NCBI GenBank assembly: GCA_041657885.1
Contig: JBBABB010000002.1
Coordinates: 25,483-89,482 of the forward strand
DNA: 64,000 nucleotides
From: Minisyncoccota bacterium
GTDB lineage: Bacteria; Patescibacteriota; Minisyncoccia; Phycocordibacterales; UBA9973
Direction of reading: 5' to 3'
Below are positions 7,031 through 61,982 of the stretch, piece after piece. The notes below the pieces were generated by a model that had not been told where the DNA came from, ran no database searches, and saw only the letters and a list, made by a program, of their open reading frames with translations. Every line of letters starts with the position of its first letter. Position 1 is the stretch's first letter. The position numbers and the translations under genes are program-made.

Positions 7031-7128
7031 ATTTATCCCCACACCTATATTTCCATCAAAAATATATAACAGCAGGGTATTTTTACTAAAAAAGCAGAAT
7101 GATGGGAATATGGGTGTGGGGATTTATC
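7031..7128. repeat. P-family MITE-like element. TIRs atttatCCCCACACCTATATTTCCATC / GATGGGAATATGGGTGTGGGGatttatc.
   Basis: The inverted pair is visible. The inner sequence aaaaagcagaatgatgggaatat recurs in the copy at 20539-20683. Confidence 0.8.
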
Positions 7129-7207
7129 AAGATAAAATTAAACAAATCCGAACAATATGCCTTTGTACTAATTATCTAAGTAATTAAGCATCATGTCAAG
7201 GAGTTTT

Positions 7208-7350
7208 ACCCCCACACCCACTTTTTCATTGCTTTAATATTGTGCCATTAAAATATTCAGAAATATATAAAATATCTTTATAAATCAAGTATAAATAATA
7301 ATATTCCTAAAAAATAAAGCACAATGATGAAAAAGTAGGTGTGGGGGTTT
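7208..7350. repeat. P-family MITE-like element. TIRs CCCCCACACCCACTTTTTCAT / ATGAAAAAGTAGGTGTGGGGG with an AT-rich core of about 100 bp.
   Basis: A perfect inverted repeat of about 21 bp. Confidence 0.8.
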
Positions 7351-7360
7351 ATGCACTTTT

Positions 7361-7527
7361 TATCCCCACACCTATATTTTTATAGATTTTCATCTTTTAA
7401 ATAAAAAACTACTTAATTGGTATTTCTAATAAATTATCGCGTAAAAATAGACATTTTGTATTCAAAATAATAAAAATATAGGTGTGGGGATTTATCCCAC
7501 CTTGCCACCTATATTTTTATTGCAGGC
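7361..7527. repeat. P-family element (tatCCCCACACCTATATTTTtata ... AAAAATATAGGTGTGGGGATTTATC) plus an adjacent partial inverted fragment ccaCCTATATTTTTATTGCAGGC.
   Basis: Inverted TIRs are present. The 3' fragment shares TTTTTATTGCAGGC with the copy at 1209-1287. Confidence 0.75.
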
Positions 7528-7771
7528 TCCTTTTTATCCTAATTTTAAGTTGAAATAATGCCCTGCCGTCCTTTTTTAGAGACGATTCTCTTTTCCTTGC
7601 ATCACTCTCATCAAAATATGATTCATAATATCTAAGTTCAAAAGGACGACGACTTTTAGTGGAAAAAACTTTACCATTATTATGATCCGAGAGCCTGCGT
7701 CGTAAATCATTTGTTGAGCCAATGTAAATATTATTGTCTTTTTTACTTTTTAAAATATATAAGTAGAACAT
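7517..7771 (-). CDS. GIY-YIG nuclease-superfamily small protein (YhbQ/UPF0213-like, 84 aa).
   Basis: N-terminal motif YLYILKSKKDNNIYIGSTNDLRRRLSDHN is a classic GIY-YIG. The gene is flanked on both sides by same-orientation copies of the P-family TIR. Confidence 0.8.
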   Translation of the reverse strand: MFYLYILKSKKDNNIYIGSTNDLRRRLSDHNNGKVFSTKSRRPFELRYYESYFDESDARKRESSLKKDGRALFQLKIRIKRSLQ

Positions 7772-7800
7772 ATATTTATATTATATGATTTATGACTATA

Positions 7801-7826
7801 AAAATATAGGTGTGGGGATTTATCCA
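7801..7826. repeat. Solo P-family TIR (AAAATATAGGTGTGGGGATTTATCC). It contains a perfect DnaA-box-like nonamer TTATCCACA.
   Basis: Identical to the right TIR at 7473-7497. Confidence 0.7.
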
Positions 7827-15760: not shown

Positions 15761-16903
15761 ATGGATACTATGAAAACAACAATAAAAAAATTAGAAAAAA
15801 GCGAAATAGAAATAGTGGGCTCTATAGAAGTCGCTGAATTTGAGAAATATGAGGGCAAAGCGCTCGAAAGAATCGGCGAGCGCCTTGAACTTCCTGGTTT
15901 TCGAAAAGGGAAAGCCCCGAGTGGAATTGTGAAAGAAAACGTTCAAGAAATGGAACTATTGGAAGAAACGGCAGAGCTTGCATTGATGGATAATTATATG
16001 AAAATCTTGGAAGAGAATAAGATAGATGCTATCGGTCGTCCACAAATCGCAATTACAAAAATCGGAAAGGGTTCTGACCTAGAATTCAAAATCGTCACTG
16101 CTGTTCTTCCAGAAATGAAACTTCCTGATTATAAAAAAATTGCAAAAGAACAAAGTGGAAAAGAGGACAACAAGCGAGAAATTATTGTTGATGAAAAAGA
16201 TGTAGAAAAAGTAATTCTTGACCTTCGCAAAATGCGAGCTGAGCAGGCTCGTGGTAGTAATCATGTTGGCCATGAGAACATGACAGAAGAACCTGCCCGC
16301 CCTCACGATCATTCGGGAGCAGGCGGGGAACATGCAAAAGCCCATGCTGAATCTGCCTCATCGGCAGATAAAATTCCAGAAAGTGAATACCCTATTTTTG
16401 ATGATGCATTCGCAAAAACTTTTGGTGACTTCAAAGATGCTGGGGCATTCAAAGAAAAAATTCGCAGTAATATAAAAATAGAAAAGGAAACCGAGCAGAA
16501 AGACAAACTGCGCCTTGTGATAGTGGAAGAGCTAGTGAAACTAACCGAAGGAGAAATTCCTGAGATTTTAATAGAAAGTGAGATAGATAAAATAATGTAT
16601 CGGCTAGAAGCAGACATCACAAATGCTGGATTAAAACTAGAAGATTATTTAAAACAAATAAATAAAACCGATGCGGATTTGAGAAAAGAATGGCGAGCAG
16701 ACGCAGAGAAACGCGCGAAACTTCAAATGATAATCCATACAATCTCTGAAAAAGAAAATCTAAAACCAACCGAAGAAGAAATTGTAAAAGACGTTACACA
16801 AATCACAACTATGTACAAAGATGCCGACCCCACTCGTGCTCGTTCGTACGTAGAACAAATGTTAGAAAATGAGAAGGTGTTTAAGTTTTTAGAAACACAA
16901 TAA
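15761..16903 (+). CDS. tig: Trigger factor.
   Basis: N-terminal PGFRKGKAP signature. Carries an in-frame GC-rich insertion encoding [13 protein letters not shown] at 16291-16331. Confidence 0.88.
16291..16331. repeat. GC-rich hairpin element, family D (CCTGCCCGCCCTCAC..ATTCGGGAGCAGGCGGGGA), in-frame inside tig.
   Basis: A near-identical copy sits at 44398-44441 in the helicase C-terminus. Both encode ARPH..SGAGGE. Confidence 0.75.
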
Positions 16904-17627: not shown

Positions 17628-18704
17628 ATGCTACAATTAGTGCAACAAATGATTAAATTAACAGAAAGACAAAAAAAAATATTAGGATTTATAACAGAAA
17701 ATACCCAAATCGGTATCTCAGAAATTCTTGAGTTTATAAACAAAAATGAGTTAGAAATTACTCGTTTTTCTATTATCCGTGATTTAAATATACTTATTGA
17801 GAATAACCTAGTAAAAAAAGTGGGTGGTGGCCGTTCTACAAAATATACACCAAAGGAAAATGATACTCTCCATAAATATATTGATATTGATGATTATTTC
17901 AAAAAACCACAAGATGAGAGGGTTCTTATCTCAAAAAACTTTGAATTTAACATTTTTGAAAAAATAAATAATTTATTTACAAAAGAACAACTAGAAAAAA
18001 TAAACGTTCTTAACAATAAATTTAGAGAAAATATAAATAAAATTTCTCCGACCATAAAAAAACTAGAAATGGAGAGATTTATCATAGAATTATCTTGGAA
18101 ATCATCGCAAATAGAAGGAAATACTTACTCGCTGCTGGATACAGAATATTTAATCAAAAATAAAATTGAAGCTGAAGGACATAAAAAAGAAGAAGCCATT
18201 ATGATTTTGAATCATAAAATTACTTTAGATTTTATAAATAAAAATACTTCTTATTTCAAATCAATATCTATAAAAAAAATAGAGGAGCTACATAAACTTA
18301 TAACGGAAGGATTAGGAGTCAATCATGGAATTAGAAAATCTCCAGTCGGGATTACGGGGACAAATTATATTCCGCTTGATAATGAATATCAGATAAAAGA
18401 AGCTATAAAAAAAATGACTGAGAGAATAAACAAAGAAGTAGATCCAATTATAAAAGCATTCCTATCTTTATCTATTATTTCTTATATACAACCATTTGAA
18501 GACGGAAATAAGAGAACAGCGCGACTACTCGCAAATGCGATACTTATCGCTCACAATTACTGCCCACTATCATACAGAAGCGTCAAAGAGGTTGATTATA
18601 AAAAAGCAATTTTAGTGTTTTATGAGTCTCACAATCTTGATCCACTAAAAAGAATGTTTGTTGAGCAATTTGAATTCGCTATTAAAAATTATTTTAGAAA
18701 ATAA
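17628..18704 (+). CDS. Fic/Doc-family protein with an N-terminal wHTH. Its core motif is the non-canonical QPFEDGNKRTAR.
   Basis: Fic fold motif .PF.DGN.R..R is present, but the catalytic His is Gln and the second Gly is Lys, which is Doc-like. wHTH: LTERQKKILGFITENTQIGISEILEFI. Confidence 0.75.
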   Translation: MLQLVQQMIKLTERQKKILGFITENTQIGISEILEFINKNELEITRFSIIRDLNILIENNLVKKVGGGRSTKYTPKENDTLHKYIDIDDYFKKPQDERVLISKNFEFNIFEKINNLFTKEQLEKINVLNNKFRENINKISPTIKKLEMERFIIELSWKSSQIEGNTYSLLDTEYLIKNKIEAEGHKKEEAIMILNHKITLDFINKNTSYFKSISIKKIEELHKLITEGLGVNHGIRKSPVGITGTNYIPLDNEYQIKEAIKKMTERINKEVDPIIKAFLSLSIISYIQPFEDGNKRTARLLANAILIAHNYCPLSYRSVKEVDYKKAILVFYESHNLDPLKRMFVEQFEFAIKNYFRK

Positions 18705-20538: not shown

Positions 20539-20683
20539 CTTGCCCCCACACCTATATTCCCATAGCTTTTATTCTGTTAAGCAAAATTCCTAATCATTTC
20601 ATATTTTTGATTGAATTATAGAGTTATAACCTTTTTTTATTGAAAAAGCAGAATAATGGGAATATAGGTGTGGGGGCTTGTAT
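20539..20683. repeat. P-family MITE-like element. TIRs cttgCCCCCACACCTATATTCCCAT / ATGGGAATATAGGTGTGGGGGcttg.
   Basis: A perfect inverted repeat of about 25 bp. Internal sequence is homologous to the copy at 7031-7128. Confidence 0.85.
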
Positions 20684-27398: not shown

Positions 27399-28214
27399 TT
27401 AAAACTCTATCATTATCGGACAGTGGTCGGAGCCATAATAATCGGACATTGTTTTGAAACTTTTTATTTTGGAAACAAAAGATTGATTTGTGAAAAAATA
27501 ATCTAACCGCCAGCCGACGTTTCTGTCGCGAGCACGAGTTTTAATATCCCAGTAAGTGTAGACATCTTTTTTATTTGGATAAAAATTGCGAAATATATCT
27601 ACCCAACCATTATTCACGACTTCATCAAGCCAAGCGCGCTCTATTGGCAAGAAGCCTGTATTATCAGCATTCTCTTTTGGTCGAGCTAAATCAATTTCTT
27701 TGTGGGCAGTATTTATATCGCCACAAAAAATTACACTGCGTCCCGCTGTAGCTTTATGCGAAAGCGGATTATTTCCATTTTTTAATTTATTTATAAATTC
27801 TAAAAATGCATCATAAAATTCAAGTTTGTAATTGAGTCGTTCTTCTCCTCCTCCGCTGTTAGGAAAGTAGCAGTTTATTAAAACAAAATCAGGGTAGTAA
27901 GCAACAAGTGTTCGTCCCTCATCATCAAATTTTGGAATTCCAAAACCATATTCAACTTTTTCTGGTTCGGTTTTTGAATATATTACTACACCACTGTATC
28001 CTTTTCTCCCTTTTGAATATGAAAAGTATGAATGATATCCTTTTAAATTCCTAGATTTCTCATCGAGTTGTTCTGGTTCGCATTTGGTTTCTTGAAGACA
28101 AACAATATCTGGCCCGCCTGCGCAGGCAGGATTATTAAAAGCAAACAAGGGAATAAAATTCTCTTGTTTTATTGTCGCCCGTAAGCCGTTCGTGTTCCAA
28201 CTGATAATCTTCAT
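27399..28214 (-). CDS. xth: Exodeoxyribonuclease III / AP endonuclease.
   Basis: MKIISWNTNGLRA, LQETK, and the C-terminal WRLDYFF..SDHCP signature. Confidence 0.9.
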   Translation of the reverse strand: MKIISWNTNGLRATIKQENFIPLFAFNNPACAGGPDIVCLQETKCEPEQLDEKSRNLKGYHSYFSYSKGRKGYSGVVIYSKTEPEKVEYGFGIPKFDDEGRTLVAYYPDFVLINCYFPNSGGGEERLNYKLEFYDAFLEFINKLKNGNNPLSHKATAGRSVIFCGDINTAHKEIDLARPKENADNTGFLPIERAWLDEVVNNGWVDIFRNFYPNKKDVYTYWDIKTRARDRNVGWRLDYFFTNQSFVSKIKSFKTMSDYYGSDHCPIMIEF

Positions 28215-30233: not shown

Positions 30234-31223
30234 TTATTTGCTATGAAATTTCTTATGCACATCTCGAAGTTGTTTATCTGTAACATGAGTATATATCTGA
30301 GTGGTTGCAATATTTGCATGGCCGAGCATCATTTGAACTGAACGGATATCGGCACCATTAGAAAGTAAATCCGTCGCAAACGAGTGGCGAATAACGTGAG
30401 GTGTAACTTTTTTTGAGATACCGGCAACTATTGCATAATATTTTACAATGCGTTCTACAGAGCGGGGAGTAAGACGATTTGTATTAGAGGTCGTACCTCT
30501 AGTGCTCCCGAGGTCCGACCTCTGATTTCTTGAATACTGTATAAATAATGGTTCATCCATATCCTTGCGAGCTTTCAGATATTCACGAATTGCATTTTTT
30601 GCAGAATCGGACAAAAACACAACTCGAACTTTTTCTCCTTTACCACGGACAGAGAATTCATCTTTGGATAAATCCAAATCTCGGTCAAGAGAGCAAAGTT
30701 CGGACAAACGTAACCCTGTTGAGAAAAACAATTCTAATATCGCTTTATCTCGTAAAATTTTCTGTGTTTTAGAGGTCAGATCTCTAGTGCTCCCGAGGTC
30801 TGACCTCTTTAATAATTCATTTGGTGCATTCAATAATCTATTGAGTTCATCAACGGATATTAAATCAAGCGAGCGCTCTTTTATTTTTGCTAGGTCTATG
30901 CGGTCGGGAGGTAGGGAAGTAATATCTCTTTTCATTAAATATTTGAGAAATGAGCGAAGGGCAATCAAGTGATAATTCTGAGTATTTTTCTTTAGTGTAC
31001 TTGATTGTTGTCCACTAACTTTTACTCCCGGCTGACGATTAAGGAACAGGCGAAATTCACGAATCTTTTCGTCAGTTATTTCTTTTGGTCCCGAAATTTT
31101 GGCAAATTCAAAAAAGCGACTTATATAATGGTCATAATTATTAACCGTTTTTAAACTATTGCCTTTCTCAATTTCAACATGTTCAAGAAATTCTCTTTTT
31201 AATTGTTCAAGTTCGGTAGTCAC
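30234..31223 (-). CDS. Tyrosine recombinase, XerC/XerD-like.
   Basis: C-terminal RHSFATDLLSNGADIRSVQMMLGHANIATTQIYTHV. Carries two in-frame palindromic family E insertions. Confidence 0.88.
   Translation of the reverse strand: MTTELEQLKREFLEHVEIEKGNSLKTVNNYDHYISRFFEFAKISGPKEITDEKIREFRLFLNRQPGVKVSGQQSSTLKKNTQNYHLIALRSFLKYLMKRDITSLPPDRIDLAKIKERSLDLISVDELNRLLNAPNELLKRSDLGSTRDLTSKTQKILRDKAILELFFSTGLRLSELCSLDRDLDLSKDEFSVRGKGEKVRVVFLSDSAKNAIREYLKARKDMDEPLFIQYSRNQRSDLGSTRGTTSNTNRLTPRSVERIVKYYAIVAGISKKVTPHVIRHSFATDLLSNGADIRSVQMMLGHANIATTQIYTHVTDKQLRDVHKKFHSK
30485..30525. repeat. Family E palindrome (AGAGGTCgtACCTCTAGTGCTCCCGAGGTCcGACCTCT), in-frame within the recombinase gene.
   Basis: Outer arms AGAGGTC..GACCTCT are a perfect inverted repeat. 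Encodes ..RSDLGSTRGTTSNT. Confidence 0.8.
30770..30812. repeat. Family E palindrome, second copy (AGAGGTCAGAtCTCTAGTGCTCCCGAGGTCTGACCTCT).
   Basis: About 90% identical to 30485-30525. Encodes ..RSDLGSTRDLTSK. Confidence 0.8.
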
Positions 31224-37722: not shown

Positions 37723-37749
37723 ATCGCAAATTAATCTTAAAAACATATC

Positions 37750-37785
37750 TGTAACACTTGCCAACGGGTGTAGGCATCTGTTACA
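37750..37785. promoter_or_regulatory. 36-bp palindromic site TGTAACACTTGCCAACGGGTGTAGGCATCTGTTACA immediately upstream of the PaaX-like gene.
   Basis: Arms TGTAACA/TGTTACA. A 34/36-identical direct copy lies at 38378-38413. Confidence 0.65.
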
Positions 37786-37793
37786 CTAAACAA

Positions 37794-38357
37794 ATGATGA
37801 AATTCAAAAAAGAGAACCTACAACATGGAGCTCAAACTTTAGGAAATATATTACTGGCGAGCGTCGCTATTGCTGGAATAGCAGGTGTCGCAGTTTTTGC
37901 TCCAAATGCAATGCAAATAATTAAATACGTAATTCCCGAGGATGATATAAAACGTCACTATAAATATCGAATAAATAGTAGTCTAAAAAAACTAATCACT
38001 AATGGATATCTAGTAGAGAAAATTGTTAATAATAAAAAGGTTATTGTGCTTACTAATAAAGGTAAATTACGCTATGAATCTCTTAAAGAACATAAAAATC
38101 AAAAATGGGATGGTAAGTGGAGGGTTGTATCTTTTGATGTTTATGAAAAAAATAGAAAGAAGAGAGATTTACTACGTCAAGAACTTCAAGCATATGGATT
38201 TCAAATGATGCATCAAAGTATGTGGATATATCCTTATCCTTGCGATGAATATATAGCATTATTAAAGTCAAATTTATCCTTTGGAAAAAATGTTCAATAT
38301 ATGTTAGTTGATTATGTAGATATGCACATTGAGCTGAAAAGAATGTTCGATTTATAA
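37794..38357 (+). CDS. PaaX-like transcriptional regulator (wHTH plus C-terminal domain).
   Basis: WDGKWRVVSFDVYEKNRKKRDLLRQELQAYGFQMMHQSMWIYP matches the PaaX W.G.W..V.....E.R..R..LR..L...GF......W..P pattern. The ORF track's 37758 start is a TTG inside the palindrome. ATG 37794 is preferred. Confidence 0.65.
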   Translation: MMKFKKENLQHGAQTLGNILLASVAIAGIAGVAVFAPNAMQIIKYVIPEDDIKRHYKYRINSSLKKLITNGYLVEKIVNNKKVIVLTNKGKLRYESLKEHKNQKWDGKWRVVSFDVYEKNRKKRDLLRQELQAYGFQMMHQSMWIYPYPCDEYIALLKSNLSFGKNVQYMLVDYVDMHIELKRMFDL

Positions 38358-38377
38358 ATAAATCAAACTTAAACAAG

Positions 38378-38413
38378 TGTAACACTTGTCAACGGGTGTA
38401 GGTATCTGTTACA
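38378..38413. promoter_or_regulatory. Second copy of the 36-bp palindrome, TGTAACACTTGTCAACGGGTGTAGGTATCTGTTACA, downstream of the PaaX-like gene.
   Basis: Direct repeat of 37750-37785. Confidence 0.65.
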
Positions 38414-42434: not shown

Positions 42435-44456
42435 ATGCGATATCTTGATTCTTTGAATGAAAAACAAAAAGAGGCAGTTCTTTATACGGATGGGCCTCTT
42501 TTGATTGTAGCTGGGGCTGGAGCAGGGAAGACGAAAACATTGACTCACCGAATAATTCACCTTATCCACAAAGGAGTAAACCCGAGCTCAATATTGGCAG
42601 TAACCTTTACAAATAAGGCCGCAAAGGAAATGCGGGATAGGGTTATGGGATTGTTGGAAGATAGGGAGCATGGAGTTAGTGCGCCCGAGCGAAGCGAGGG
42701 CGCCCCATTCGTCTCCACCTTTCACTCACTTGGGGTTCATATTATAAAAGAAAATTCTCATTTGATAGGTTTGAATAAATATTTCACGATTATAGACGAG
42801 AGCGATGCGCTGAGCATCATCAAAAGCATAATGAAAGAACGCGACATAGATACAAAACAACATGAGCCAAGAAAAATAAAATCAATTATTTCAAAGTCAA
42901 AAGGTGACTTTATTACAGTAGATACATTTAGTGCCAATGCAAAAAGTGCTGTGCAAAGTATCGTCGCAATGATTTGGCGAGATTATGAAGCAAGATTGAA
43001 AAAAGAAAAAGCATTGGACTTCGACGATTTACTTCTTGAGACAGTTTTGATTTTAAAAAAATATCCGGAGATAAAACAAAAATATCAAGAGGAGTGGAAA
43101 TATCTTCATATAGATGAGTACCAAGATACGAACGAAGTTCAATATGAAATGACAAAACTTTTAGTCGGAAAAGAAGAAAATATTTGTGTTACGGGAGATT
43201 GCGATCAATGTGTGTATTCATGGCGAGGTGCTAGCATCAAAAACATGTTGCACTTTGAAAAAGATTATCCAAACGCCAAGATAGTAATACTCGAACAAAA
43301 TTACCGCTCAACAAAAAATATTATTGAAGCGGCAAATAGTGTTATTGAGAAAAATGTTTATCGCGTGCCTAAAATTTTATTTACGGAAAATGTGAAAGGG
43401 GAGGAGATTACGATTTGCGAAGCTTATGATGAACAAAGTGAAGCAATATTTGTGGTAAAAAAGATAGACGAATTTTTAAAAGAAAATAATCCCGAAGATA
43501 TCGCGATACTTTATCGTGCAAACTTTCAATCAAGAGTTTTAGAAGAGGCATTACTTGATAAACAAATTCCTTATCAAGTACTTGGAGTAAAATTCTTTGA
43601 ACGAAAAGAAATTAAAGATTTGCTCGCATACATTCGCCTCTCTTACAATAAAGAAAGTTTGTCGGACATAAAAAGAATAATAAATATTCCAACTCGTGGA
43701 ATAGGGAAGACCACAATCGCAAAACTTTTTGCGGGGACTACAAATGATTTACCAAAAGGAATGCAAATAAAAATTGGAAAATTCTATGAGCTTGTTGACG
43801 GCATACGATTGTATATTGACTCTCATAAACCATCTGAATCTGTGAAATACGTGATAGAGAAAAGTGGACTAAAAGAGGAGCTTTCTCACGGCACGAGCGA
43901 CGAACAAGAACGCTTGGAAAATATGATGGAATTGGTAACTTTAGCTATAAAATATGACAATATTCCAGACGGTGAAGGAATGGAAAAACTACTTGAAGAT
44001 GCATCTCTTGCAAGCGACCAAGACACTCTGATGCACCCCATTAAAAACCGCGAGGGATCACAAGGACCCTCTGTTTCTAACGGGACAGGTAAGGGAAATG
44101 GCGTGAAGTTAATGACAGTGCATGCATCGAAAGGTCTTGAGTTTAAATATGTTTTCATCACGGGGCTTGAACAAGATTTATTCCCACATACAAAAGGAAA
44201 TTCAAAAACAAAAGAAGACAACGAGGAAGAGAGAAGATTATTTTACGTGGCCGTCACTCGAGCAAGGGAAAAATTATTTTTATCTTATGCATCACTCCGA
44301 ACAATTTTTGGAATGAAACAAGTGAACAGCCCAAGCGAATTCATTTACGATATTCCCGCACACTTAACAATTTTTGAACAAGCATATTCTTCAAGGGGAC
44401 CTGCCCGCCCTCACAAAGATTCGGGAGCAGGCGGGGAGAAAGTGGTGTATTTATAG
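42435..44456 (+). CDS. pcrA: UvrD/PcrA-family ATP-dependent DNA helicase.
   Basis: Motif I AGAGAGKTKTLTHR, Ia TFTNKAAKEM, II LHIDEYQDTN, plus later motifs. The C-terminus carries a family D insertion (..ARPHKDSGAGGEKVVYL). Confidence 0.92.
   Translation: MRYLDSLNEKQKEAVLYTDGPLLIVAGAGAGKTKTLTHRIIHLIHKGVNPSSILAVTFTNKAAKEMRDRVMGLLEDREHGVSAPERSEGAPFVSTFHSLGVHIIKENSHLIGLNKYFTIIDESDALSIIKSIMKERDIDTKQHEPRKIKSIISKSKGDFITVDTFSANAKSAVQSIVAMIWRDYEARLKKEKALDFDDLLLETVLILKKYPEIKQKYQEEWKYLHIDEYQDTNEVQYEMTKLLVGKEENICVTGDCDQCVYSWRGASIKNMLHFEKDYPNAKIVILEQNYRSTKNIIEAANSVIEKNVYRVPKILFTENVKGEEITICEAYDEQSEAIFVVKKIDEFLKENNPEDIAILYRANFQSRVLEEALLDKQIPYQVLGVKFFERKEIKDLLAYIRLSYNKESLSDIKRIINIPTRGIGKTTIAKLFAGTTNDLPKGMQIKIGKFYELVDGIRLYIDSHKPSESVKYVIEKSGLKEELSHGTSDEQERLENMMELVTLAIKYDNIPDGEGMEKLLEDASLASDQDTLMHPIKNREGSQGPSVSNGTGKGNGVKLMTVHASKGLEFKYVFITGLEQDLFPHTKGNSKTKEDNEEERRLFYVAVTRAREKLFLSYASLRTIFGMKQVNSPSEFIYDIPAHLTIFEQAYSSRGPARPHKDSGAGGEKVVYL
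44398..44441. repeat. Family D GC-rich hairpin element, in-frame at the helicase C-terminus.
   Basis: gaCCTGCCCGCCCTCACaaagATTCGGGAGCAGGCGGGGAgaa, about 90% identical to 16291-16331 in tig. Confidence 0.75.
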
Positions 44457-44457
44457 A

Positions 44458-44568
44458 TTCCCCTCGTTGAGGGGTGCCCGTAGGGTGGGGTGGATTTAAT
44501 TAATTAACCCATCCACCCCGTCCTCTGGTTACAGAGTCCACCCCTCAAGAGGGGAATTAATACAGAAA
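44458..44568. repeat. Family C composite palindrome of about 110 bp, intergenic between the helicase and rsmA.
   Basis: ATTCCCCTCgTTGAGGGGTGCCCGTAGGGTGGGGTGGAT ... ATCCACCCCGTCC ... CACCCCTCAAGAGGGGAAT. A shorter copy lies at 56986-57051. Confidence 0.8.
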
Positions 44569-44589: not shown

Positions 44590-45477
44590 ATGATTCATAA
44601 AGCGAAAAAATCAATGGGGCAGAATTTTCTTAAGTCCAAACCGGCACTCAATATGATGTGCGAGGCAGGAGAGGTAAATAACTCCGATACTATTCTTGAA
44701 ATTGGTCCGGGGAAAGGAGTACTGACAGAAAAACTTTTAGAAAAGGCGGGGAAGGTGATAGCGATTGAAAAAGACCGAGAACTATTTGAATTTTTAAAAG
44801 AAAAATTTGGAGAAGAAATAAAAAATAAAAAATTAATTTTATTAAATGAAGATATATTACAGTTTGAGTTCCCCTCCCCTTTGGGGAGGGCTGGGGAGGG
44901 GTTCCTAATTAAGAACCTCCCCTCATTCCCCTCCAAAGGAGGGGAGGAAATCAATTCTTATAAAATCATCGCCAACATTCCGTATAATATTACCGGCTCA
45001 ATTTTAAAAAAGTTTCTATCTTGCGAGAATCAACCAGAAAGAATGGTTCTCTTAGTGCAAAAAGAAGTCGCGGAAAGAATTGTCACTCGCGATGGCAAAG
45101 AAAGTATTTTGTCACTAAGCGTGAAGGCATACGGGACTCCGAAATACATAATGAAGGTTCATAAGCGATTTTTCTCACCAGCTCCTAAAGTAGATTCGGC
45201 TATTATTGCAATCAATAATATTTCTAGACAGAATTTTCATACAAAAAATGAAGAAAATGTGTTTTTTGGCTTGGTTAAAACAGGTTTTGCTCACAAAAGA
45301 AAAGTTCTTCGTAAAAATCTGGAAACTAAGGAAGTCGGACCCTCCTCGTCGGCGGGCATGCTTCCAAAGATTGATGAGATTTTTGAAAAATTAGGAATTA
45401 ATCCGAATGCTCGCGCCGAGGATATCAAGTTCGAAAAATGGCTTCTGATTTCTCGTCTTTTATCCACAGATATCTAG
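44590..45477 (+). CDS. rsmA: 16S rRNA (adenine1518/1519-N6)-dimethyltransferase RsmA/KsgA, with an in-frame insertion of about 27 aa.
   Basis: MGQNFLKS, EIGPGKGVLT, NIPYNITG. The family B palindrome encodes EFPSPLGRAGEGFLIKNLPSFPSKGGEEI just before the NIPYNI motif. Confidence 0.9.
   Translation: MIHKAKKSMGQNFLKSKPALNMMCEAGEVNNSDTILEIGPGKGVLTEKLLEKAGKVIAIEKDRELFEFLKEKFGEEIKNKKLILLNEDILQFEFPSPLGRAGEGFLIKNLPSFPSKGGEEINSYKIIANIPYNITGSILKKFLSCENQPERMVLLVQKEVAERIVTRDGKESILSLSVKAYGTPKYIMKVHKRFFSPAPKVDSAIIAINNISRQNFHTKNEENVFFGLVKTGFAHKRKVLRKNLETKEVGPSSSAGMLPKIDEIFEKLGINPNARAEDIKFEKWLLISRLLSTDI
44868..44949. repeat. Family B GC-rich palindromic element of about 82 bp, in-frame inside rsmA.
   Basis: TTCCCCTCCCCTTTGGGGAGGGCTGGGGAGGGGTTCCTAATT | AATTAAGAACCTCCCCTCATTCCCCTCCAAAGGAGGGGAGGAA. 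An intergenic reverse-complement copy lies at 56449-56540. Confidence 0.85.
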
Positions 45478-56449: not shown

Positions 56450-56540
56450 TTCCTCCCCTCCTTACCAAGGAGGGGAATGAGGGGAGGTTCTTAATTAATT
56501 AGGAACCCCTCCCCAGCCCTCCCCAAAGGGAAGGGAATCC
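56449..56540. repeat. Family B GC-rich palindromic element, intergenic copy (reverse complement of the rsmA copy).
   Basis: TTCCTCCCCTCCTTaccAAGGAGGGGAATGAGGGGAGGTTCTTAATTAATTAGGAACCCCTCCCCAGCCCTCCCCAAAGGGaAGGGAA. Confidence 0.85.
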
Positions 56541-56565: not shown

Positions 56566-56976
56566 ATGCAATTCAAAGTCCCACAATTTATTGATATCGA
56601 GGACAAATTATTTGGCCCTTTTACTTTCTTTCAGTTTGTATACCTTGTGGGAGGAGCTGGAATAGTGTTTGTCATATATAAAATTTTCCCTTTGTGGATT
56701 GGTATTTTTCTTATTATTCCAGTTGCTATATTATCTGTCCTGCTTGTCTTTTATAGAATAAACGGAAAACCTTTTATTTATTACCTTCAGGCTGGAGCTA
56801 GTTATCTCGTTTCAAGTAAATTGTATATATGGAAGCAGAGATTAATAAATCCAAATAGCAAGAAAAAAGAGGAGGAAGCACAAGCTCCACAAATGGTTTC
56901 GGTCATTCCGATGACATCAAATGACAAATTGAGAGACATATCTTGGAGTTTGGATGTGGAAGGGAAGGAGAAGTAA
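56566..56976 (+). CDS. Small two-TM membrane protein (136 aa), candidate VirB3/PrgI-like T4SS component.
   Basis: Two adjacent hydrophobic helices. The position just upstream of the VirB4-like ORFs is inferred from gene context. Confidence 0.45.
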   Translation: MQFKVPQFIDIEDKLFGPFTFFQFVYLVGGAGIVFVIYKIFPLWIGIFLIIPVAILSVLLVFYRINGKPFIYYLQAGASYLVSSKLYIWKQRLINPNSKKKEEEAQAPQMVSVIPMTSNDKLRDISWSLDVEGKEK

Positions 56977-56985
56977 TAATGTGTG

Positions 56986-57051
56986 AATTCCCCTCTTGAG
57001 GGGTGCCTGAAAGGCGGGGTGGATGAATTTGAGGGGAATTAAAATTCTTTC
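56986..57051. repeat. Family C element, shortened copy (AATTCCCCTCTTGAGGGGTGCCTGAAAGGCGGGGTGGAT...GAGGGGAATT).
   Basis: The left arm matches 44458-44497. Outer inverted ends are retained. Confidence 0.75.
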
Positions 57052-57078
57052 AGTAACAAATTATGTTATAATTATAAT

Positions 57079-57732
57079 ATGGCCATTAGTGCAAAAAGCT
57101 CTCAAGAGTTTGTATCAATTAAAGAAGTTAGAAACGGTATCATCGTCCTAAAAGACGGGGGACTTCGGTCTGTGCTAGTGGCATCTTCTTTGAACCTTTC
57201 TTTAAAATCCTCCGAGGAGCAGGCTGCAATAATAAATGGATTTCAAGGTTTTATAAATGGGTTAGATTTTTCTACTCAAATAGTTGTGCAATCCCGTCGG
57301 CTAGACATTAGACCATACCTTCTTCTTTTAGAAAACAGAATTAAAGAGCAAGTAGAACCACTTTTAAAGATACAAACGAAAGAATATATTAATTTTATAA
57401 AATCTTTCACAGATGAAGTGAACATTATGACAAAAACTTTCTTTATTGTGGTTCCTTATACTCCTACAATAATAAAATCTAGTGGTAAGATGATGGATAG
57501 TTTACTTGGTGGAGGTGCACCAAAGAAACAGGTTGAAGATACAAAGAGAGCGATTGACATGGCCTCTTTTGAGGAAAAGCGCACCCAGCTTGACCAACGG
57601 GTAAGAGTTATAAGCGAAGGACTTGGAGGAATGGGAATTAGAACATCTGAACTTAAAACAGACCAGGTTATTGAACTTTTTTATAAAACATTCAATCCAG
57701 GAGATATTAGTCAGGGAATTAAATTACAATAA
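57079..57732 (+). CDS. VirB4/TcpF/PrgJ-type ATPase, N-terminal domain (217 aa), encoded as a separate ORF abutting the ATPase ORF.
   Basis: KEVRNGIIVLKDGGLRSVLVASSLNLSLKSSEEQAAII resembles the N-terminus of Gram-positive VirB4-like proteins. Stop TAA at 57730-57732, next ATG at 57735, different frame. Confidence 0.55.
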   Translation: MAISAKSSQEFVSIKEVRNGIIVLKDGGLRSVLVASSLNLSLKSSEEQAAIINGFQGFINGLDFSTQIVVQSRRLDIRPYLLLLENRIKEQVEPLLKIQTKEYINFIKSFTDEVNIMTKTFFIVVPYTPTIIKSSGKMMDSLLGGGAPKKQVEDTKRAIDMASFEEKRTQLDQRVRVISEGLGGMGIRTSELKTDQVIELFYKTFNPGDISQGIKLQ

Positions 57733-57734
57733 GT

Positions 57735-59570
57735 ATGTCAATATTTTCAAATTTATTAGGAAAAAAGAATAACATCTCTAAAAACAAGAGCATGGTTATG
57801 CCTGTTTTACCAAGTGAAATATATAAAGCGGCAGCACTTGAACTTCAGGATATTATCGCTCCATCAGCTCTTCAGATAACTCCAAGGTCACTAAACCTCG
57901 GAGACAAAATAGCAAGAACATTCTTTGTAATATCATATCCACGGTATCTTAGTGATAATTGGTTCTCTCCAATTATAAATTTGGATAAGGTTTTTGATGT
58001 ATCTATTTTTATCCACCCTATTGACACAGCAGAAATATTGAGAACATTTCAGAAGAAAGTAGCCGAGGTTCAGAGTCAAATCTCTGTTCGTGAATCAAGG
58101 GGGCTAGTGCGAGACCCAATGCTTGATACTGCATACCAAGACCTTGAAAATTTACGAGATAATCTTATGCAAGCTCAAGAGAAAATGTTTAATGTTGGTC
58201 TTTATATCACAGTTTATGCTGAGAATGATAACGATTTATTTAAAATTGAAAATGAAATTAAATCTCTTCTTGAATCAAAACTCATCTATCTAAAGCCAGC
58301 ACTATTTCAGCAGGCTGAAGGATTTAAAAGTGTTATTCCTTTAGGAACAGACGTGCTAGGTATTCACCAAAAACTCAACACTGAACCACTTTCAAGTATT
58401 TTCCCATTCGTCTCTTTTGACTTAACTGATGATAAAGGAATATTGTATGGGGTCAATCGCCACAATTCTAGCTTGATTCTTTTTGATAGATTTTCCCTCC
58501 CAAACTACAACTCCATAATTTTTGCAACTGCTGGAGCTGGTAAATCTTATGCCGCTAAATTAGAAATTATTCGTACTTTAATGTTTGACACAGAAGTTAT
58601 CGTCATAGACCCAGAGCGTGAATACGAATATCTAGCTGAAGCAGTAGGAGGTAGATATTTTAACATCGCTCTTTCTTCCGACCACCATATAAATCCTTTT
58701 GAATTACCTATTCCCACAGGAGATGAAACAGGGGCAGATGTTCTCCGCTCAAATACTATAAATCTTGTAGGGTTGTTCCGCATAATGCTTGGAGGATTAA
58801 CACCAGAAGAAGATTCTATTATAGATAGTGCTATCACAGAGACATATGCCTTAAAAGATATTACCGCGGAGTCAGACTTTAGAAATATTGAGGTTCCATT
58901 ATTAACGGACTTTGAGATGGTTCTCTCTGGAATGGAGGGAAGCGATTCGCTTGTCCAGCGCTTGACCAAATATACTCACGGGTCTTGGGCATCATTTTTA
59001 AACCAACCATCAAACGTTGATATCAACCGAAAATTTATAGTTTTCTCTGTCAGAGATATGGAGGATGAACTAAAACCTGTAGCAATGTATATTGTTACTC
59101 ATTATATTTGGAATTCTATTCGTAAAAATATTAGAAAAAGATTACTTGTAGTAGATGAGGCCTGGTGGATGATGAAATCAGAAGATACTGCATCGTTCCT
59201 CTATTCTATTGCTAAAAGAGGACGAAAATACTGGCTAGGACTTGCAACTATTACTCAAGACGTAGGGGATTTTATGAAAAGCGCTTATGGCATACCTATT
59301 ATTACTAACTCTTCTATTCAATTACTTCTAAAACAGTCCCCAGCAACAATAGATGTCTTACAAAAAACATTCAGTCTTACAGAGGAAGAGAAATATTTGC
59401 TGTTAGAGGCAAATGTTGGAGAAGGTATCTTTTTTGTTGGCCTAAAACACGTTGCAGTTAAAACAATCGCTTCTTATACCGAAGACCAAATTATCACATC
59501 TGACCCTTCACAAATTTTGGCTATCAAAAAAGCAAAAGGGGAATTATTGGCGGCGGGGAGTAGTAATTAG
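57735..59570 (+). CDS. VirB4/TraC/ConE-like T4SS ATPase, C-terminal motor portion (611 aa).
   Basis: Walker A FATAGAGKSYAAK, Walker B LLVVDEAWWMM. Walker A sits about residue 265, so about 200 N-terminal residues appear to be supplied by the preceding ORF. Confidence 0.85.
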   Translation: MSIFSNLLGKKNNISKNKSMVMPVLPSEIYKAAALELQDIIAPSALQITPRSLNLGDKIARTFFVISYPRYLSDNWFSPIINLDKVFDVSIFIHPIDTAEILRTFQKKVAEVQSQISVRESRGLVRDPMLDTAYQDLENLRDNLMQAQEKMFNVGLYITVYAENDNDLFKIENEIKSLLESKLIYLKPALFQQAEGFKSVIPLGTDVLGIHQKLNTEPLSSIFPFVSFDLTDDKGILYGVNRHNSSLILFDRFSLPNYNSIIFATAGAGKSYAAKLEIIRTLMFDTEVIVIDPEREYEYLAEAVGGRYFNIALSSDHHINPFELPIPTGDETGADVLRSNTINLVGLFRIMLGGLTPEEDSIIDSAITETYALKDITAESDFRNIEVPLLTDFEMVLSGMEGSDSLVQRLTKYTHGSWASFLNQPSNVDINRKFIVFSVRDMEDELKPVAMYIVTHYIWNSIRKNIRKRLLVVDEAWWMMKSEDTASFLYSIAKRGRKYWLGLATITQDVGDFMKSAYGIPIITNSSIQLLLKQSPATIDVLQKTFSLTEEEKYLLLEANVGEGIFFVGLKHVAVKTIASYTEDQIITSDPSQILAIKKAKGELLAAGSSN

Positions 59571-59571
59571 A

Positions 59572-59666
59572 TACACCCCCTCTGCTTTTAGCATCTCCCC
59601 CTTCGCAGGGGGCGAGGAATTCTTCCTCCCTTGCGAAGGGGAGGTGTCCAAAGGACGGAGGGGTGA
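59572..59666. repeat. Family A GC-rich element, full two-armed palindromic copy of about 95 bp.
   Basis: ACACCCCCTCTGCTTTTAGCATCTCCCCCTTCGCAGGGGGCGAGG-aattc-TTCCTCCCTTGCGAAGGGGAGGTGTCCAAAGGACGGAGGGGTG. Confidence 0.8.
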
Positions 59667-59730
59667 ATCAAATTATAGGTTGTTAGAGAAGCAGGATTAT
59701 TATATAATATATAAAGTGAAATTTACAAAA

Positions 59731-60711
59731 ATGAAAATCTTTCTCGTCGGATTTTTTATTCTGGGGATAATAAATATCCCTTATATTTCTTCAGCTGAAA
59801 TGCAAATTGAAGTGCAGGAAGGAGAAATAAACGTGGAAACAAGTCCAAACAATCCACAACCATACCAAGATGTAACAATCAATCTATCTAGTTATGCAAC
59901 CGATTTAAACAAAGCAACAATAATGTGGCAAGCGGAATCGGGAGTTGTTCTATCTGGGATAGGTAAAACGAGTTATTCTTTTAAAGCTCTAGGCCCAAAT
60001 ACCATCACTGTTTTTAATATCAGTGTTACCCCAGCAGGCTCTATGAACACAATAAATAAGAGGGTGGTTATTGCTCCATCTGAAATTGAAGTTATGTGGG
60101 AATCTGCTGACGGATATACTCCGCCTTTTTATAGAGGGAAGTCTCTTCCAATTAGTGGTGCAGTGATAAGAGCTGTGGCAATTCCAAATACAAACACAAT
60201 AAAATCTGGTAGTGGAAGTATTACCTATACGTGGAAAAATGGTGACAACACAGTACTTGAAGCTTCTGGATATAATAAAAATGCTTATGTATTTAAAAAT
60301 AGTATGTTTGATGAGAAAAATACGATAACGGTAATCGCTTCGTCAGTCAGTGGGGATTATGGGGCAGAAAACACAATAGATATACCACTCTATCAACCTA
60401 AAATAATTTTTTATAAAAAATCACCAACAGATGGTGTTCTTTATAATAAAGCTCTTGATAAAGAAACTGCTATGCCTGAAGATGAAATGACAATCGTGGG
60501 TGAACCATATTTTTTATCTATCAAAGGGAAAGAAGGTTCTTTTAATTACAACTGGAAAATAAATGGGAGTAGTATACAAACACCAACAAAGAAAACAGAA
60601 TTAACAATAAGGCCAAATTCTCGTGGAGGATATGCTACTATAAGTTTAGTAATTGAAAATATAAATGAATTATTCCAAAGTGTTAGTAATCAGCTAAAAA
60701 TCAATCTTTAA
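59731..60711 (+). CDS. Secreted beta-rich protein with Ig-like modules (about 326 aa from ATG 59731).
   Basis: Signal peptide MKIFLVGFFILGIINIPYISSA. The ORF-track start at 59452 is a spurious extension through the GC-rich repeat. Confidence 0.6.
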   Translation: MKIFLVGFFILGIINIPYISSAEMQIEVQEGEINVETSPNNPQPYQDVTINLSSYATDLNKATIMWQAESGVVLSGIGKTSYSFKALGPNTITVFNISVTPAGSMNTINKRVVIAPSEIEVMWESADGYTPPFYRGKSLPISGAVIRAVAIPNTNTIKSGSGSITYTWKNGDNTVLEASGYNKNAYVFKNSMFDEKNTITVIASSVSGDYGAENTIDIPLYQPKIIFYKKSPTDGVLYNKALDKETAMPEDEMTIVGEPYFLSIKGKEGSFNYNWKINGSSIQTPTKKTELTIRPNSRGGYATISLVIENINELFQSVSNQLKINL

Positions 60712-60712
60712 T

Positions 60713-61981
60713 ATGAAAAAAAATGAAAATAAAAATATTTATGGAGTAGTTGGCGGGTTTTTCCTTTCTATTTTTATAATATTTCCTTTTTTTGTAACAT
60801 TAAAAGCGGAAGCTGTAACCACATTTTATGAGTATATTAATGTGGGAGGGGTACAAAGTAGAATTTGTGGAATGAAATATGAAGCGATGTGTAATATTGC
60901 TTTACAACAAATCCCTGGATGTGAAAAATTTTCATGCTCAAAAACTTCGCAACTAGATAATTATATTTGTGTTAGTGCAATTCCTCCTATTTGTCCCAAA
61001 GACGAGGTGCAAACAGTTGACCCTCAAAAAGACACCCCAAAAAGTGATGTTTATACATTTCTCGCTCCTTTAACAGAAGAAAAAACAGCACCAAATAATA
61101 TTGGAGATTATTTTAATTGGATATTTACTTTAGCCATAGGTCTTTGTGGTGCCCTTGCTGTTATTATGATTGTGATAGGAGGAGTAACATATATGGGAAG
61201 TGAATCTATTTTTGGCAAAACAGAGGCAAAGAAACAAATAACAAATGCAATACTGGGTTTATTGATTGCTCTTGGGGCTTTTGCACTACTTAATACTATT
61301 AATCCAGACCTTCTGAAAACCGATATTAATATAAAGCAAGTTAGTGCAGAGATAGTAAACTTTGATGTTTCTGGATCAGCAACGTTTGATGGGAAGCCCA
61401 TTAAAATCAATTTCAATAAAGAGGCTTACCCGGCTGCAAAAATCGCTTCAGAAAAAACAGGTGTTGAGACCGCTTTTATTCTAGCTATGTTTGCCCAAGA
61501 AACTGGCAGTGGAAGTAATACCGGGGGTTGTAATTATTCAAGTGCAAATATGGGGAGCGGTCAATTAGATTCCCTAAAGACAGTTGCAACTAGTTTGGGT
61601 CTTGATTATACAAAAATAAATATGTCTTGTAGTGGAGGAGGTAGTTCTCATGGAGGAGCGATAGGATATACTCAATTTCTCCCAGGCACATGGCTTCTAT
61701 ATCGTGCCGAGGCAAAACAATTGCTAGGGCATGAACCAAATCCATGGAACACTGCTGATGCTCTGATGATGACAGCTTTATTCCTAAAGAGGAATGGGGG
61801 TGCTGGTTCTAATCCTGCTAGTCAAGAAGCGGCGGCGTGTAAATATTTCGGTAGTTGTTCTGTGGTTGTTAGTTGCGGGGGTGGAAAAACAGGGACTTAC
61901 GGACAATGTATAATGGGTAAAAAATTGAGTATACAACAACAGATAGATGAGGCAATTAAAAATGGAGAAATAAATAAATAA
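60713..61981 (+). CDS. Membrane protein with an N-terminal signal, a two-helix hydrophobic hairpin and a C-terminal SLT-type lytic transglycosylase domain (VirB1/CwlT-like).
   Basis: AQETGSG ... GAIGYTQFLPGTW resembles the SLT motif E-S...GxxGxMQxxPxTW. Hydrophobic hairpin NWIFTLAIGLCGALAVIMIVIGG...ILGLLIALGAFALL. Confidence 0.6.
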   Translation: MKKNENKNIYGVVGGFFLSIFIIFPFFVTLKAEAVTTFYEYINVGGVQSRICGMKYEAMCNIALQQIPGCEKFSCSKTSQLDNYICVSAIPPICPKDEVQTVDPQKDTPKSDVYTFLAPLTEEKTAPNNIGDYFNWIFTLAIGLCGALAVIMIVIGGVTYMGSESIFGKTEAKKQITNAILGLLIALGAFALLNTINPDLLKTDINIKQVSAEIVNFDVSGSATFDGKPIKINFNKEAYPAAKIASEKTGVETAFILAMFAQETGSGSNTGGCNYSSANMGSGQLDSLKTVATSLGLDYTKINMSCSGGGSSHGGAIGYTQFLPGTWLLYRAEAKQLLGHEPNPWNTADALMMTALFLKRNGGAGSNPASQEAAACKYFGSCSVVVSCGGGKTGTYGQCIMGKKLSIQQQIDEAIKNGEINK

Positions 61982-61982
61982 C

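Follow-up and report, generated by a model that had tools for sequence, protein, structure and literature searches.

Rickettsia palindromic elements (RPEs; Ogata et al. 2000, summarised in PMC10969869) are palindromic repeats of ∼100-150 bp that lie in frame in unrelated genes and occur in Rickettsia only. Repetitive extragenic palindromic sequences (REPs) have been described within genes as well, where orthologues in some cases carry them at an identical position (Di Nocera et al. 2013, PMC3733652), and HUH tyrosine transposases, the RAYTs, are thought to mobilise REPs and the related REPINs in the form of single-stranded hairpins (PMC3733652). Here we analyzed a window of 64,000 nucleotides (the whole stretch of DNA under study, from contig JBBABB010000002.1) belonging to a Candidatus Paceibacterota metagenome-assembled genome (MAG) of the candidate phyla radiation (CPR/Patescibacteria), with a G+C content of ∼35%, in which the trigger factor gene tig and the helicase gene uvrD/pcrA carry almost the same 36-nt GC-rich hairpin in frame. 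Comparison of filled and empty orthologous sites indicates that this shared segment was very probably derived by insertion of a selfish-type repeat. The CPR element works like RPEs and is shaped and sized like a REP, but fails the defining features of both.

The two copies and their host genes are located as follows:

15761-16903, forward strand: tig host gene, trigger factor, with Trigger_N at residues 4-152 and Trigger_C at residues 230-371, without a PPIase domain.
16292-16327, forward strand: tig element, a 36-nt hairpin of subfamily D1, in frame between GAA and GAA, coding for residues 178-189.
42435-44456, forward strand: uvrD/pcrA helicase host gene, whose Pfam UvrD_C match ends at residue 620.
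44400-44435, forward strand: pcrA element, a 36-nt hairpin of subfamily D1, in frame between GGA and GAG, coding for residues 656-667, PARPHKDSGAGG.

A preliminary description of the window had proposed that the two genes share ∼42 bp. Both copies exist, but that length was wrong, since the limits given by empty versus filled orthologous sites define a unit of 36 nt, CCTGCCCGCCCTCA-N10-GGAGCAGGCGGG. The tig and pcrA copies are identical at 33 of 36 bases, share strand and codon phase, with the first C of each at codon position 1 on the + strand, and differ at element positions 16, 18 and 19, all in the apical part of the hairpin. Both copies are also flanked by an identical single A 5′ of the element and by GA 3′ of it. 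The pcrA copy is read as PARPHKDSGAGG followed by E, the 13-residue form being PARPHKDSGAGGE. A search for CCTGCCCGCCCTCAC-NNNN-ATTCGGGAGCAGGCGGGGA gave exactly two matches in the window, each of them on the + strand (16292 and 44400), and a search with 34 fixed bases and up to 3 mismatches found only the tig and pcrA sites, compared to none in 100 dinucleotide shuffles.

The predicted hairpin comprises a CCCGCC/GGCGGG stem, a CA bulge, a CTC/GAG stem and an apical CGA/TCG stem with a 4-nt loop, leaving the first four element bases, CCTG, unpaired. As single-stranded DNA, the tig copy folded at −11.8 kcal/mol (z −3.8, with 0 of 200 shuffles equally stable) and the pcrA copy at −7.9 kcal/mol (z −1.5); as RNA in a 56-nt context, the values were −19.2 kcal/mol (z −2.3) for tig and −17.9 kcal/mol (z −0.3) for pcrA. 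Both copies are thus predicted to form hairpins, with folding clearly above chance for the tig copy and only marginally so for the pcrA copy. In the AlphaFold model of Tig (mean pLDDT 81), insert 178-189 falls within the sole low-confidence coil (residues 166-202, pLDDT<50), in a linker between Trigger_N and Trigger_C that is predicted to be disordered. The PcrA insert is situated in the tail of the protein, six residues ahead of the stop codon. The pcrA gene contains, at 42678-42707 (+), another in-frame GC-rich hairpin that is unrelated to the first, AGTGCGCCCGAGCGAAGCGAGGGCGCCCCA, read as SAPERSEGAP (−15.3 kcal/mol as RNA), in a region that varies among PcrA orthologues (consensus HGxxxPxxxxGxxPF). 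Directly 3′ of the pcrA stop codon there is also a compound palindrome of ∼100 nt (44457-44565, −58 kcal/mol as RNA) with arms CCCCTC/GAGGGG and GGGTGGGGTGG/CCATCCACCCC.

Protein alignments showed that both sites are empty in most orthologues. The insert site was vacant in 31 of 33 Tig orthologues (75-91% identity), which read HENMTEE-EHAKAH, and only P0010 and P0013 carried the same 12 residues at the same place. Similarly, 115 of 119 PcrA orthologues read ...FEQA(H/Y)SSxGEK(I/V)VYL, while 10-12 extra residues between G and E were present in the window protein, P0122, P0177 and P0190. In both proteins the orthologue flanks aligned gap-free across the empty site. The idea that the shared peptide is a genuine conserved motif of Tig and PcrA is contradicted by its absence from these 31 and 115 orthologues, respectively. 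At the codon level (^ marks the empty insertion point), the sites compare as follows:

tig, empty (L214): ACA GAA GAA^GAA CAC; filled: ACA GAA GAA, 36 nt, GAA CAT.
pcrA, empty (L212): GGA GGG^GAG AAG; filled: AGG GGA, 36 nt, GAG AAA.

The 36-bp insertion is precise in this DNA comparison, with no target duplication and no target bases lost. The pcrA site is occupied by three forms in different genomes, namely the 36-nt D1, a 30-nt D1 (L001 = P0177) and a 36-nt D2 (L215 = P0190), the latter with arms that match D1 and an unrelated inner hairpin.

Other in-frame inserts were observed in the same proteins. The Tig linker holds another family, KS(S/D)E(A/T)GSPDAS(K/E)EA(F/L)RE, at three different positions, one site being shared by P0006, P0009, P0019, P0028, P0031, P0053 and P0119 and the others found in P0078 and P0038; several element families thus have a hot spot in this linker. 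A PcrA insert family, PASAGS(F/Y)GEA, lies ahead of the EEERRLFYVA motif in orthologues P0123, P0130, P0193 and P0235. The hairpin is one family of a wider habit in CPR genomes, whose members appear as short GC-rich in-frame inserts in the same genes. PcrA orthologues P0122, P0124, P0132, P0134, P0177 and P0212 are ∼1010-1033 residues long with a precomputed intein domain (PF14890), and the window pcrA is without an intein.

We compared 46 distinct 36-nt sequences of the element. Variable positions 18, 19 and 20 make up the hairpin loop and correspond to codon positions 3, 1 and 2, and invariance was ∼90% in the apical stem, even at its third-codon positions (15, 21 and 24). Variation tracks the hairpin and not the genetic code: because it falls in the loop regardless of codon position while third positions of the stem stay fixed, the constraint bears on the hairpin rather than on the protein. 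Covariation in the apical stem was not significant, with too few variants. We then compared element and flanks (60 codons on each side) in two orthologue pairs that had been reached via protein homology and are therefore free of DNA-pattern bias:

tig, window versus L211: 1 of 36 element bases differ versus 28.6% in the flanks; third positions, 1 of 12 versus 43%.
pcrA, window versus L213: 1 of 36 element bases differ versus 12% in the flanks (16% in the whole gene); third positions, 0 of 12 versus 32% (37% in the whole gene).

The near identity of the element in host genes that have diverged to this extent means either that it arose well after its hosts split or that it is under strong DNA-level constraint or homogenisation.

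A wider repeat search, recommended in the preliminary description, recovered the same DNA from many unrelated genes and genomes. A 38-mer fixing CAC-NNNN-ATTCGGG...GGGGA was too narrow and gave 0 matches in the Genome Taxonomy Database (GTDB). In contrast, the relaxed pattern CCTGCCCGCCCTCA-N{2,12}-GGAGCAGGCGGG, with exact arms, matched 95 stretches in GTDB species representatives and, as a lower bound, more than 115 stretches in JGI metagenome contigs. Of the 80 genome loci listed, ∼57 belong to MAGs that carry the label Paceibacterota, Nomurabacteria, Zambryskibacteria, Minisyncoccia, Parcubacteria, Patescibacteria or Saccharibacteria, and MAG DATKGV01 accounted for 11 among the matches listed. 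Once duplicates were removed, 171 unique contexts remained, with lengths of 36 nt (n=118), 33 nt (n=29) and 30 nt (n=21) and only 3 that were not a multiple of three. The element lay in sense orientation and phase 0 in 127 of the 171 contexts, and in 112 of the 131 (85%) that fall in open reading frames (ORFs) with a length of 150 aa or more, its translation there being the 12 residues PARPHxxSGAGG; the remainder includes copies in other frames or on the opposite strand. In CPR genomes the element is almost exclusively sense-oriented and placed between codons. The 19 host ORFs scanned proved to be unrelated housekeeping genes, coding for topoisomerase I (TopA), Orn/DAP decarboxylase, DnaK, NusA, CTP synthase (PyrG), Dus, PheT, phosphoglycerate kinase, DapF, H+-pyrophosphatase, M1 aminopeptidase, RpoB, RsmH, PNPase, an HTH_38-containing ORF, and synthetases of the class I Ile/Val/Leu type, class II, CysRS and Tyr/Trp type. 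Flanking residues GDW/.../EADTI suggest that the HTH_38 ORF is an IS30-type transposase.

Outside the CPR, a 33-nt form with loop TTCTTCG and identical arms was detected in Neomarinimicrobiota (Marinimicrobia), Scalindua and several unclassified MAGs, mainly in short ORFs or intergenic regions, in some cases as part of a longer palindrome or another repeat, and in one case within the probable IS30-type transposase gene, in frame. A contig labelled Candidatus Pacearchaeota archaeon and thus binned as DPANN (L004/L205, 31% G+C) has D1 in frame in a 257-aa ORF, which represents either a mis-binned CPR contig or a cross-domain occurrence. Rfam reported only four tRNAs at gathering thresholds and, with E values up to 10 allowed, no meaningful match in the vicinity of the tig copy; BLAST against phage genomes gave no match. 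The exact pattern found no D1 copies in IMG/VR. D2 was present there as 11 stretches in a different, mostly non-coding repeat context, with up to 3 per viral contig (L218-L228), usually flanked by TCTGTG(T/C)CC and not clearly in frame. Compound arrangements were seen in L026, where positions 7264-7526 hold four D1 copies as two head-to-tail pairs around an N gap within one ORF (PARPHDSSGAGGPARPHDSSGAGG...), and in L196 and L207, where a D1 copy is directly followed by another PAR-type element (PARNASQSD and PARTTVLHQ). DNA uptake sequences were ruled out as an identity for the element, given clean insertions instead of point-mutation motifs, as were CRISPR repeats, attC sites and terminators, given single copies, no T-run and the wrong architecture.

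The xth gene of the window, in which a weaker relative of the hairpin had been noted, also contains a member of the family:

27399-28214, reverse strand: xth host gene, exodeoxyribonuclease III.
28113-28130, reverse strand: xth element, an 18-nt arms-only member (CCTGCCTGC GCAGGCGGG), in frame, PACAGG, residues 29-34.

That relative is real, but not merely weak: it is a true arms-only family member on the minus strand, with the sequence CCTGCCTGCGCAGGCGGG when read along xth. Where the window has PACAGG, the majority of xth orthologues show FAFNN^PDIVC with no insert, and at the nucleotide level the empty site is AAT AAT^CCA GAC (L217). Variants at this site include PVCAGG in P0242 and PARNASHNEAGG in P0274 and P0286, with a few others that differ further, and L216 has at the same nucleotide a full 36-nt sister element, CCTGCCCGA-AATGCTTCGCATAACGAG-GCAGGCGGG. 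As at the other two sites compared, the insertion at xth, here of 18 bp, is precise and there is no target duplication. The xth sequence is an internally deleted or minimal member of a superfamily whose hallmark is a variable inner hairpin enclosed by imperfect 9-nt terminal inverted repeats, CCTGCCCGC ... GCAGGCGGG. In the fetched loci, the segment that separates these 9-nt arms spans 0-25 nt. Total lengths in coding DNA are 18, 27, 30, 33, 36 or 39 nt; a second arms-only copy was found in L032 (VVK/PARAGG/DKL). Every variant tested, including subfamilies with unrelated inner sequences, folds as a hairpin closed by the arms, and D2 copies in CPR genes are likewise in sense orientation and phase 0. 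The xth gene has in addition a second insert at 27735-27779 (−), ∼9-15 residues within NGNNPLSHKATAGRS that are missing from most orthologues and coded by a hairpin of another family, CCGCT...AGCGG. An xth insert family K(P/S)ADGQ(G/S)x was also noted in orthologues P0246, P0256, P0264, P0271, P0281 and others.

Flanks of the 112 in-frame copies were purine-rich, with the consensus AAA^GA (63-69% A at −3 to −1, 80% G at +1 and 76% A at +2) and no T at +1 or +2. When AAA^GA was located in the coding DNA of the window, the insertion point fell in sense phase 0 for 53% of the occurrences, or three times as often as expected at random. A purine-rich target preference would explain much of the bias in orientation and frame, although this argument is partly circular because the logo was drawn from coding copies and may mirror their codon usage, and the rest of the frame bias would come from selection against other frames. 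These read LPALTxxREQAG, CPPSRxFGSRRG, PACSRxxVRAGR and RLLPNxREGGQ, and one contains a stop codon.

Taken against the described systems, the element resembles RPEs in being a multi-copy palindrome in frame in unrelated, often essential genes of a small AT-rich genome, with one frame used, the insert tolerated as an extra peptide and no transposase identified. It departs from RPEs in consisting of 18-39 nt with a single GC-rich hairpin and 9-nt terminal inverted repeats, and in being spread across many CPR lineages and intergenic in other phyla; length and host set it apart from RPE families 1-10. The likeness to REPs and REPINs lies in an imperfect GC-rich palindrome of 20-40 bp with many copies and, in non-CPR genomes, in a mostly intergenic location. 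In contrast to REPs, it has no GTAG/CGTC end tag, its ends being CCTG... and ...CGGG and its flanks AAA and GA, and most copies in CPR genomes are in frame inside long ORFs. A few non-CPR copies are preceded by GGGCTA, with a polarity opposite to that of the REP tag. Unlike classical MITEs (miniature transposable elements with inverted repeats), which depend on a DDE transposase, the element combines imperfect 9-nt terminal inverted repeats with no duplication at three sites. Yeast mitochondrial GC clusters are mobile and include an optional cluster in var1. Coding palindromes have also been described in Nematomorpha mitochondria (PMC6649704). Like the CPR element, these mitochondrial sequences are short GC-rich palindromes dispersed through a strongly AT-rich genome, and some of them occupy protein genes in frame and vary between strains, but the mitochondrial cases concern organelle genomes and other sequence families, and there is no sign of common descent. 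No report of in-frame palindromic elements in CPR, Patescibacteria or Paceibacteria was found in the literature searched.

Elements of the IS200/IS605 group insert without target duplication, have hairpin ends, choose their orientation by a short target and can be excised precisely; their left and right end hairpins are distinct and their target is a defined tetra- or pentanucleotide. The CPR element shares with them the lack of target duplication at tig, pcrA and xth, which fits this class of HUH transposases. It differs from them in that a single 36-nt hairpin is the whole unit, the flank consensus reaches only 63-80%, and the CPR loci examined contained no cognate enzyme. A candidate enzyme came from L038, a locus of an unclassified non-CPR bacterium (40% G+C), in which a 160-residue ORF encodes an IS200-like Y1 transposase (Pfam Y1_Tnp, E=1.2e-25). 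The ORF aligns to IS608 TnpA (PDB) with the HUH and Tyr motifs in place, and its NCBIfam scores were 68 bits for IS200/IS605 (cut-off 55) and 28.6 bits for RAYT (cut-off 80), so that, unlike the REP/RAYT pair, it is of the IS200 type and below the RAYT cut-off. Three family members flank and invade this gene within 500 bp, with none in the rest of the 8-kb locus:

Member 1: a D1 copy 40 nt upstream of the Y1 gene.
Member 2: an inverted 44-nt variant overlapping the Y1 start codon.
Member 3: a 30-nt copy in frame (NQ/PARLVTRSGG/ED), directly after the catalytic tyrosine motif.

This single association is suggestive, and fits the hairpin nature of the element and the missing target duplication. 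Y1 genes were sought with IS200 and IS608 sequences and then with the L038 protein; weak matches in L178, L221 and the window were rejected as spurious.

How the element moves can be outlined in inferred steps. Copies would arise by insertion of a single-stranded hairpin, preferably at purine-rich sites of the sense strand, and selection would clear those in other frames, in the other orientation or at non-permissive positions, so that the survivors would be harmless flexible loops in essential proteins. In the most speculative step, a hairpin-recognising HUH transposase (Y1, IS200/IS605-type) would move the element in trans, and precise excision followed by re-insertion would keep copies near-identical. 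We regard such an HUH mechanism as possible, though short of probable. More doubtful is the stronger proposal that a unit of 18-36 nt is an active transposon, moved by an IS200/IS605-type HUH enzyme, specialised for the coding sequences of CPR essential genes and kept near-perfect between genomes, and even between phyla, because it goes on being excised precisely and re-inserted at a restricted number of permissive sites. If true, it would be the smallest known mobile element living in coding sequence and would steadily supply the proteins of reduced genomes with new loops.

Regarding the history of single sites, a neighbour-joining tree of Tig placed the window among empty-site sequences of 90-93% identity, and the filled pair P0010/P0013, 79% identical to the window, in a distant clade with empty-site neighbours. 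Independent insertion, many precise losses or transfer by recombination are all possible for the tig site. At pcrA, repeated use of a permissive site is favoured because the three forms found there are each dispersed elsewhere too. The origin from a mobile palindromic element put forward in the preliminary description agrees with the precise empty and filled sites, the dispersal and a conservation better than that of the host genes; its further claim of independent insertion is not proven at each site, given the rare tig loop variant in a distant lineage.

Several observations weigh against an insertional, mobile origin with independent events. Both filled tig lineages share the rare loop variant CGATCATTCG (2 of 120 contexts), which is awkward for two independent insertions at tig. 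The arms were fixed by the scan pattern, so that arm conservation among scan matches is partly ascertainment, and the unbiased evidence for conservation consists of the L211 and L213 pairs only. A fuzzy search allowing up to 10 substitutions in 1.5 Mb returned only 3 variants, and this near-absence of decayed copies, together with the extreme conservation, could mean that the hairpin serves the host; the sample had been chosen for perfect copies, which makes the scarcity weak evidence and gives no unbiased estimate of arm conservation. The flank consensus is weak and, instead of directing insertion, may simply result from copies ending up in Lys/Glu-rich loops. As to the enzyme, no Y1 gene other than that of L038, which belongs to a non-CPR genome, turned up in the 1.65 Mb of fetched loci, and the Pfam map of the window revealed no transposase, only a XerC/D-type recombinase. 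Finally, mobility is deduced by comparing sequences, and no act of movement was observed.

In one rival reading, the filled tig, pcrA and xth sites are old and inherited, with many precise losses or homologous recombination between lineages. Besides the rare loop variant at the same tig site in two distant clades, it would account for a host site where four orthologues have single-base loop differences (DGS, DHS, DLS) and for the graded series of variants at xth. However, an element ∼10 times less diverged than its flanks is unexpected under plain vertical descent, the three forms at the pcrA site are each found dispersed elsewhere, and the Tig tree would call for 6 or more precise losses, each independent of the others, so that we consider this history rather unlikely. 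A hairpin taken over by the host, and kept as an mRNA or DNA structure whose spread reflects its use (mRNA stability, ribosome pausing between domains or a protein binding site), is compatible with an insertional origin and not exclusive of it. The difference at 1 of 36 bases compared to 12-29% in the flanks, the near lack of decayed copies in the 1.5 Mb, the invariant stems with varying loops, the C(UUCG)G-type loop of the 33-nt form and the identical arms in several phyla are all in line with such a use. Yet most orthologues of each host gene examined do without the element, its positions in tails, linkers and loops of unrelated enzymes seem arbitrary, and the pcrA copy folds no better than shuffles; host take-over therefore strikes us as improbable, and more so than old inheritance.

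Selection on PARPHxxSGAGG as a functional peptide, for processing, modification or interaction, would fit the use of one frame in 85% of long-ORF copies and a hydrophilic, Pro/Gly-rich composition. It is very hard to reconcile with the rest of the data: the peptide is missing from most Tig and PcrA orthologues, the same GC-rich codons recur throughout genomes of 35% G+C, third positions of the stem are fixed while the residues coded by the loop vary, other frames and the opposite strand occur, copies are intergenic in other phyla, and an arms-only form of 6 residues exists. Least credible of all, to the point of being negligible, is a hairpin introduced during amplification or assembly. All data are metagenome assemblies, and the tandem copies of L026 adjoin an N gap, but the element occurs in more than 200 contigs from many independent projects and assemblers, its length is a multiple of three in 168 of 171 contexts, mostly at codon boundaries, and related organisms that were assembled independently have the same sites filled. 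Insertion of a selfish-type repeat thus remains the reading that we prefer.

Further repeats and genes were observed in the window. A different GC-rich family is represented by CCCCTCCCCTTTGGGGAGGGCTGGGGAGGGGTTCC (FPSPLGRAGEGFL, in frame) at 44871-44905 (+), inside the RrnaAD/KsgA ORF 44590-45477, with its reverse complement ∼11.6 kb away at 56502-56530, apparently intergenic. The XerC/D-type recombinase ORF (30234-31223, −) contains the 44-nt GC-rich repeat TGTATTAGAGGTCGTACCTCTAGTGCTCCCGAGGTCCGACCTCT twice, at 30480-30523 and 30765-30808 (89% identical). A 48-nt repeat (90% identical) lies at 1289-1336, in the 3′ flank of a 1507-aa ORF, and at 59617-59664, inside ORF 59452-60711, the second copy being adjoined by another GC-rich hairpin at 59591-59617. 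Direct repeats of 58 nt that contain GTAACA...TGTTACA (79% identical, 37728-37785 and 38356-38413) bracket a PaaX-like ORF at 37758-38357. Repeats of the ATAAAAATATAGGTGTGGGGATTTATCC type are present in 4-5 copies at 7080-7825, upstream of an AbiEi/AbiEii toxin-antitoxin pair, with one more ∼13 kb off at 20634-20675. A Fic-domain protein is encoded at 17628-18704, and a cluster resembling type IV secretion and conjugation systems occupies 56566-63458, with a PrgI-like protein, a TraG/VirB4-type ATPase, a type IV secretion system (T4SS) pilin with an SLT domain and a peptidoglycan-binding protein.

All in all, core genes of the CPR (rpoB, dnaK, topA, nusA and several for aminoacyl-tRNA synthetases) tolerate an identical foreign 36-nt hairpin despite residing in tiny, gene-dense genomes. 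Selfish DNA in frame in the manner of Rickettsia is not the peculiarity of one genus and recurs, in much smaller form, in another reduced AT-rich lineage. The 12-residue inserts will distort alignments, trees and structure predictions of CPR proteins and can seed mis-assembly, and the association with an IS200-like gene makes the mechanism directly testable in vitro. Near-identical elements in diverged genes point to a process that is either ongoing or strongly constrained, and the inserts provide a natural map of permissive sites in essential proteins.

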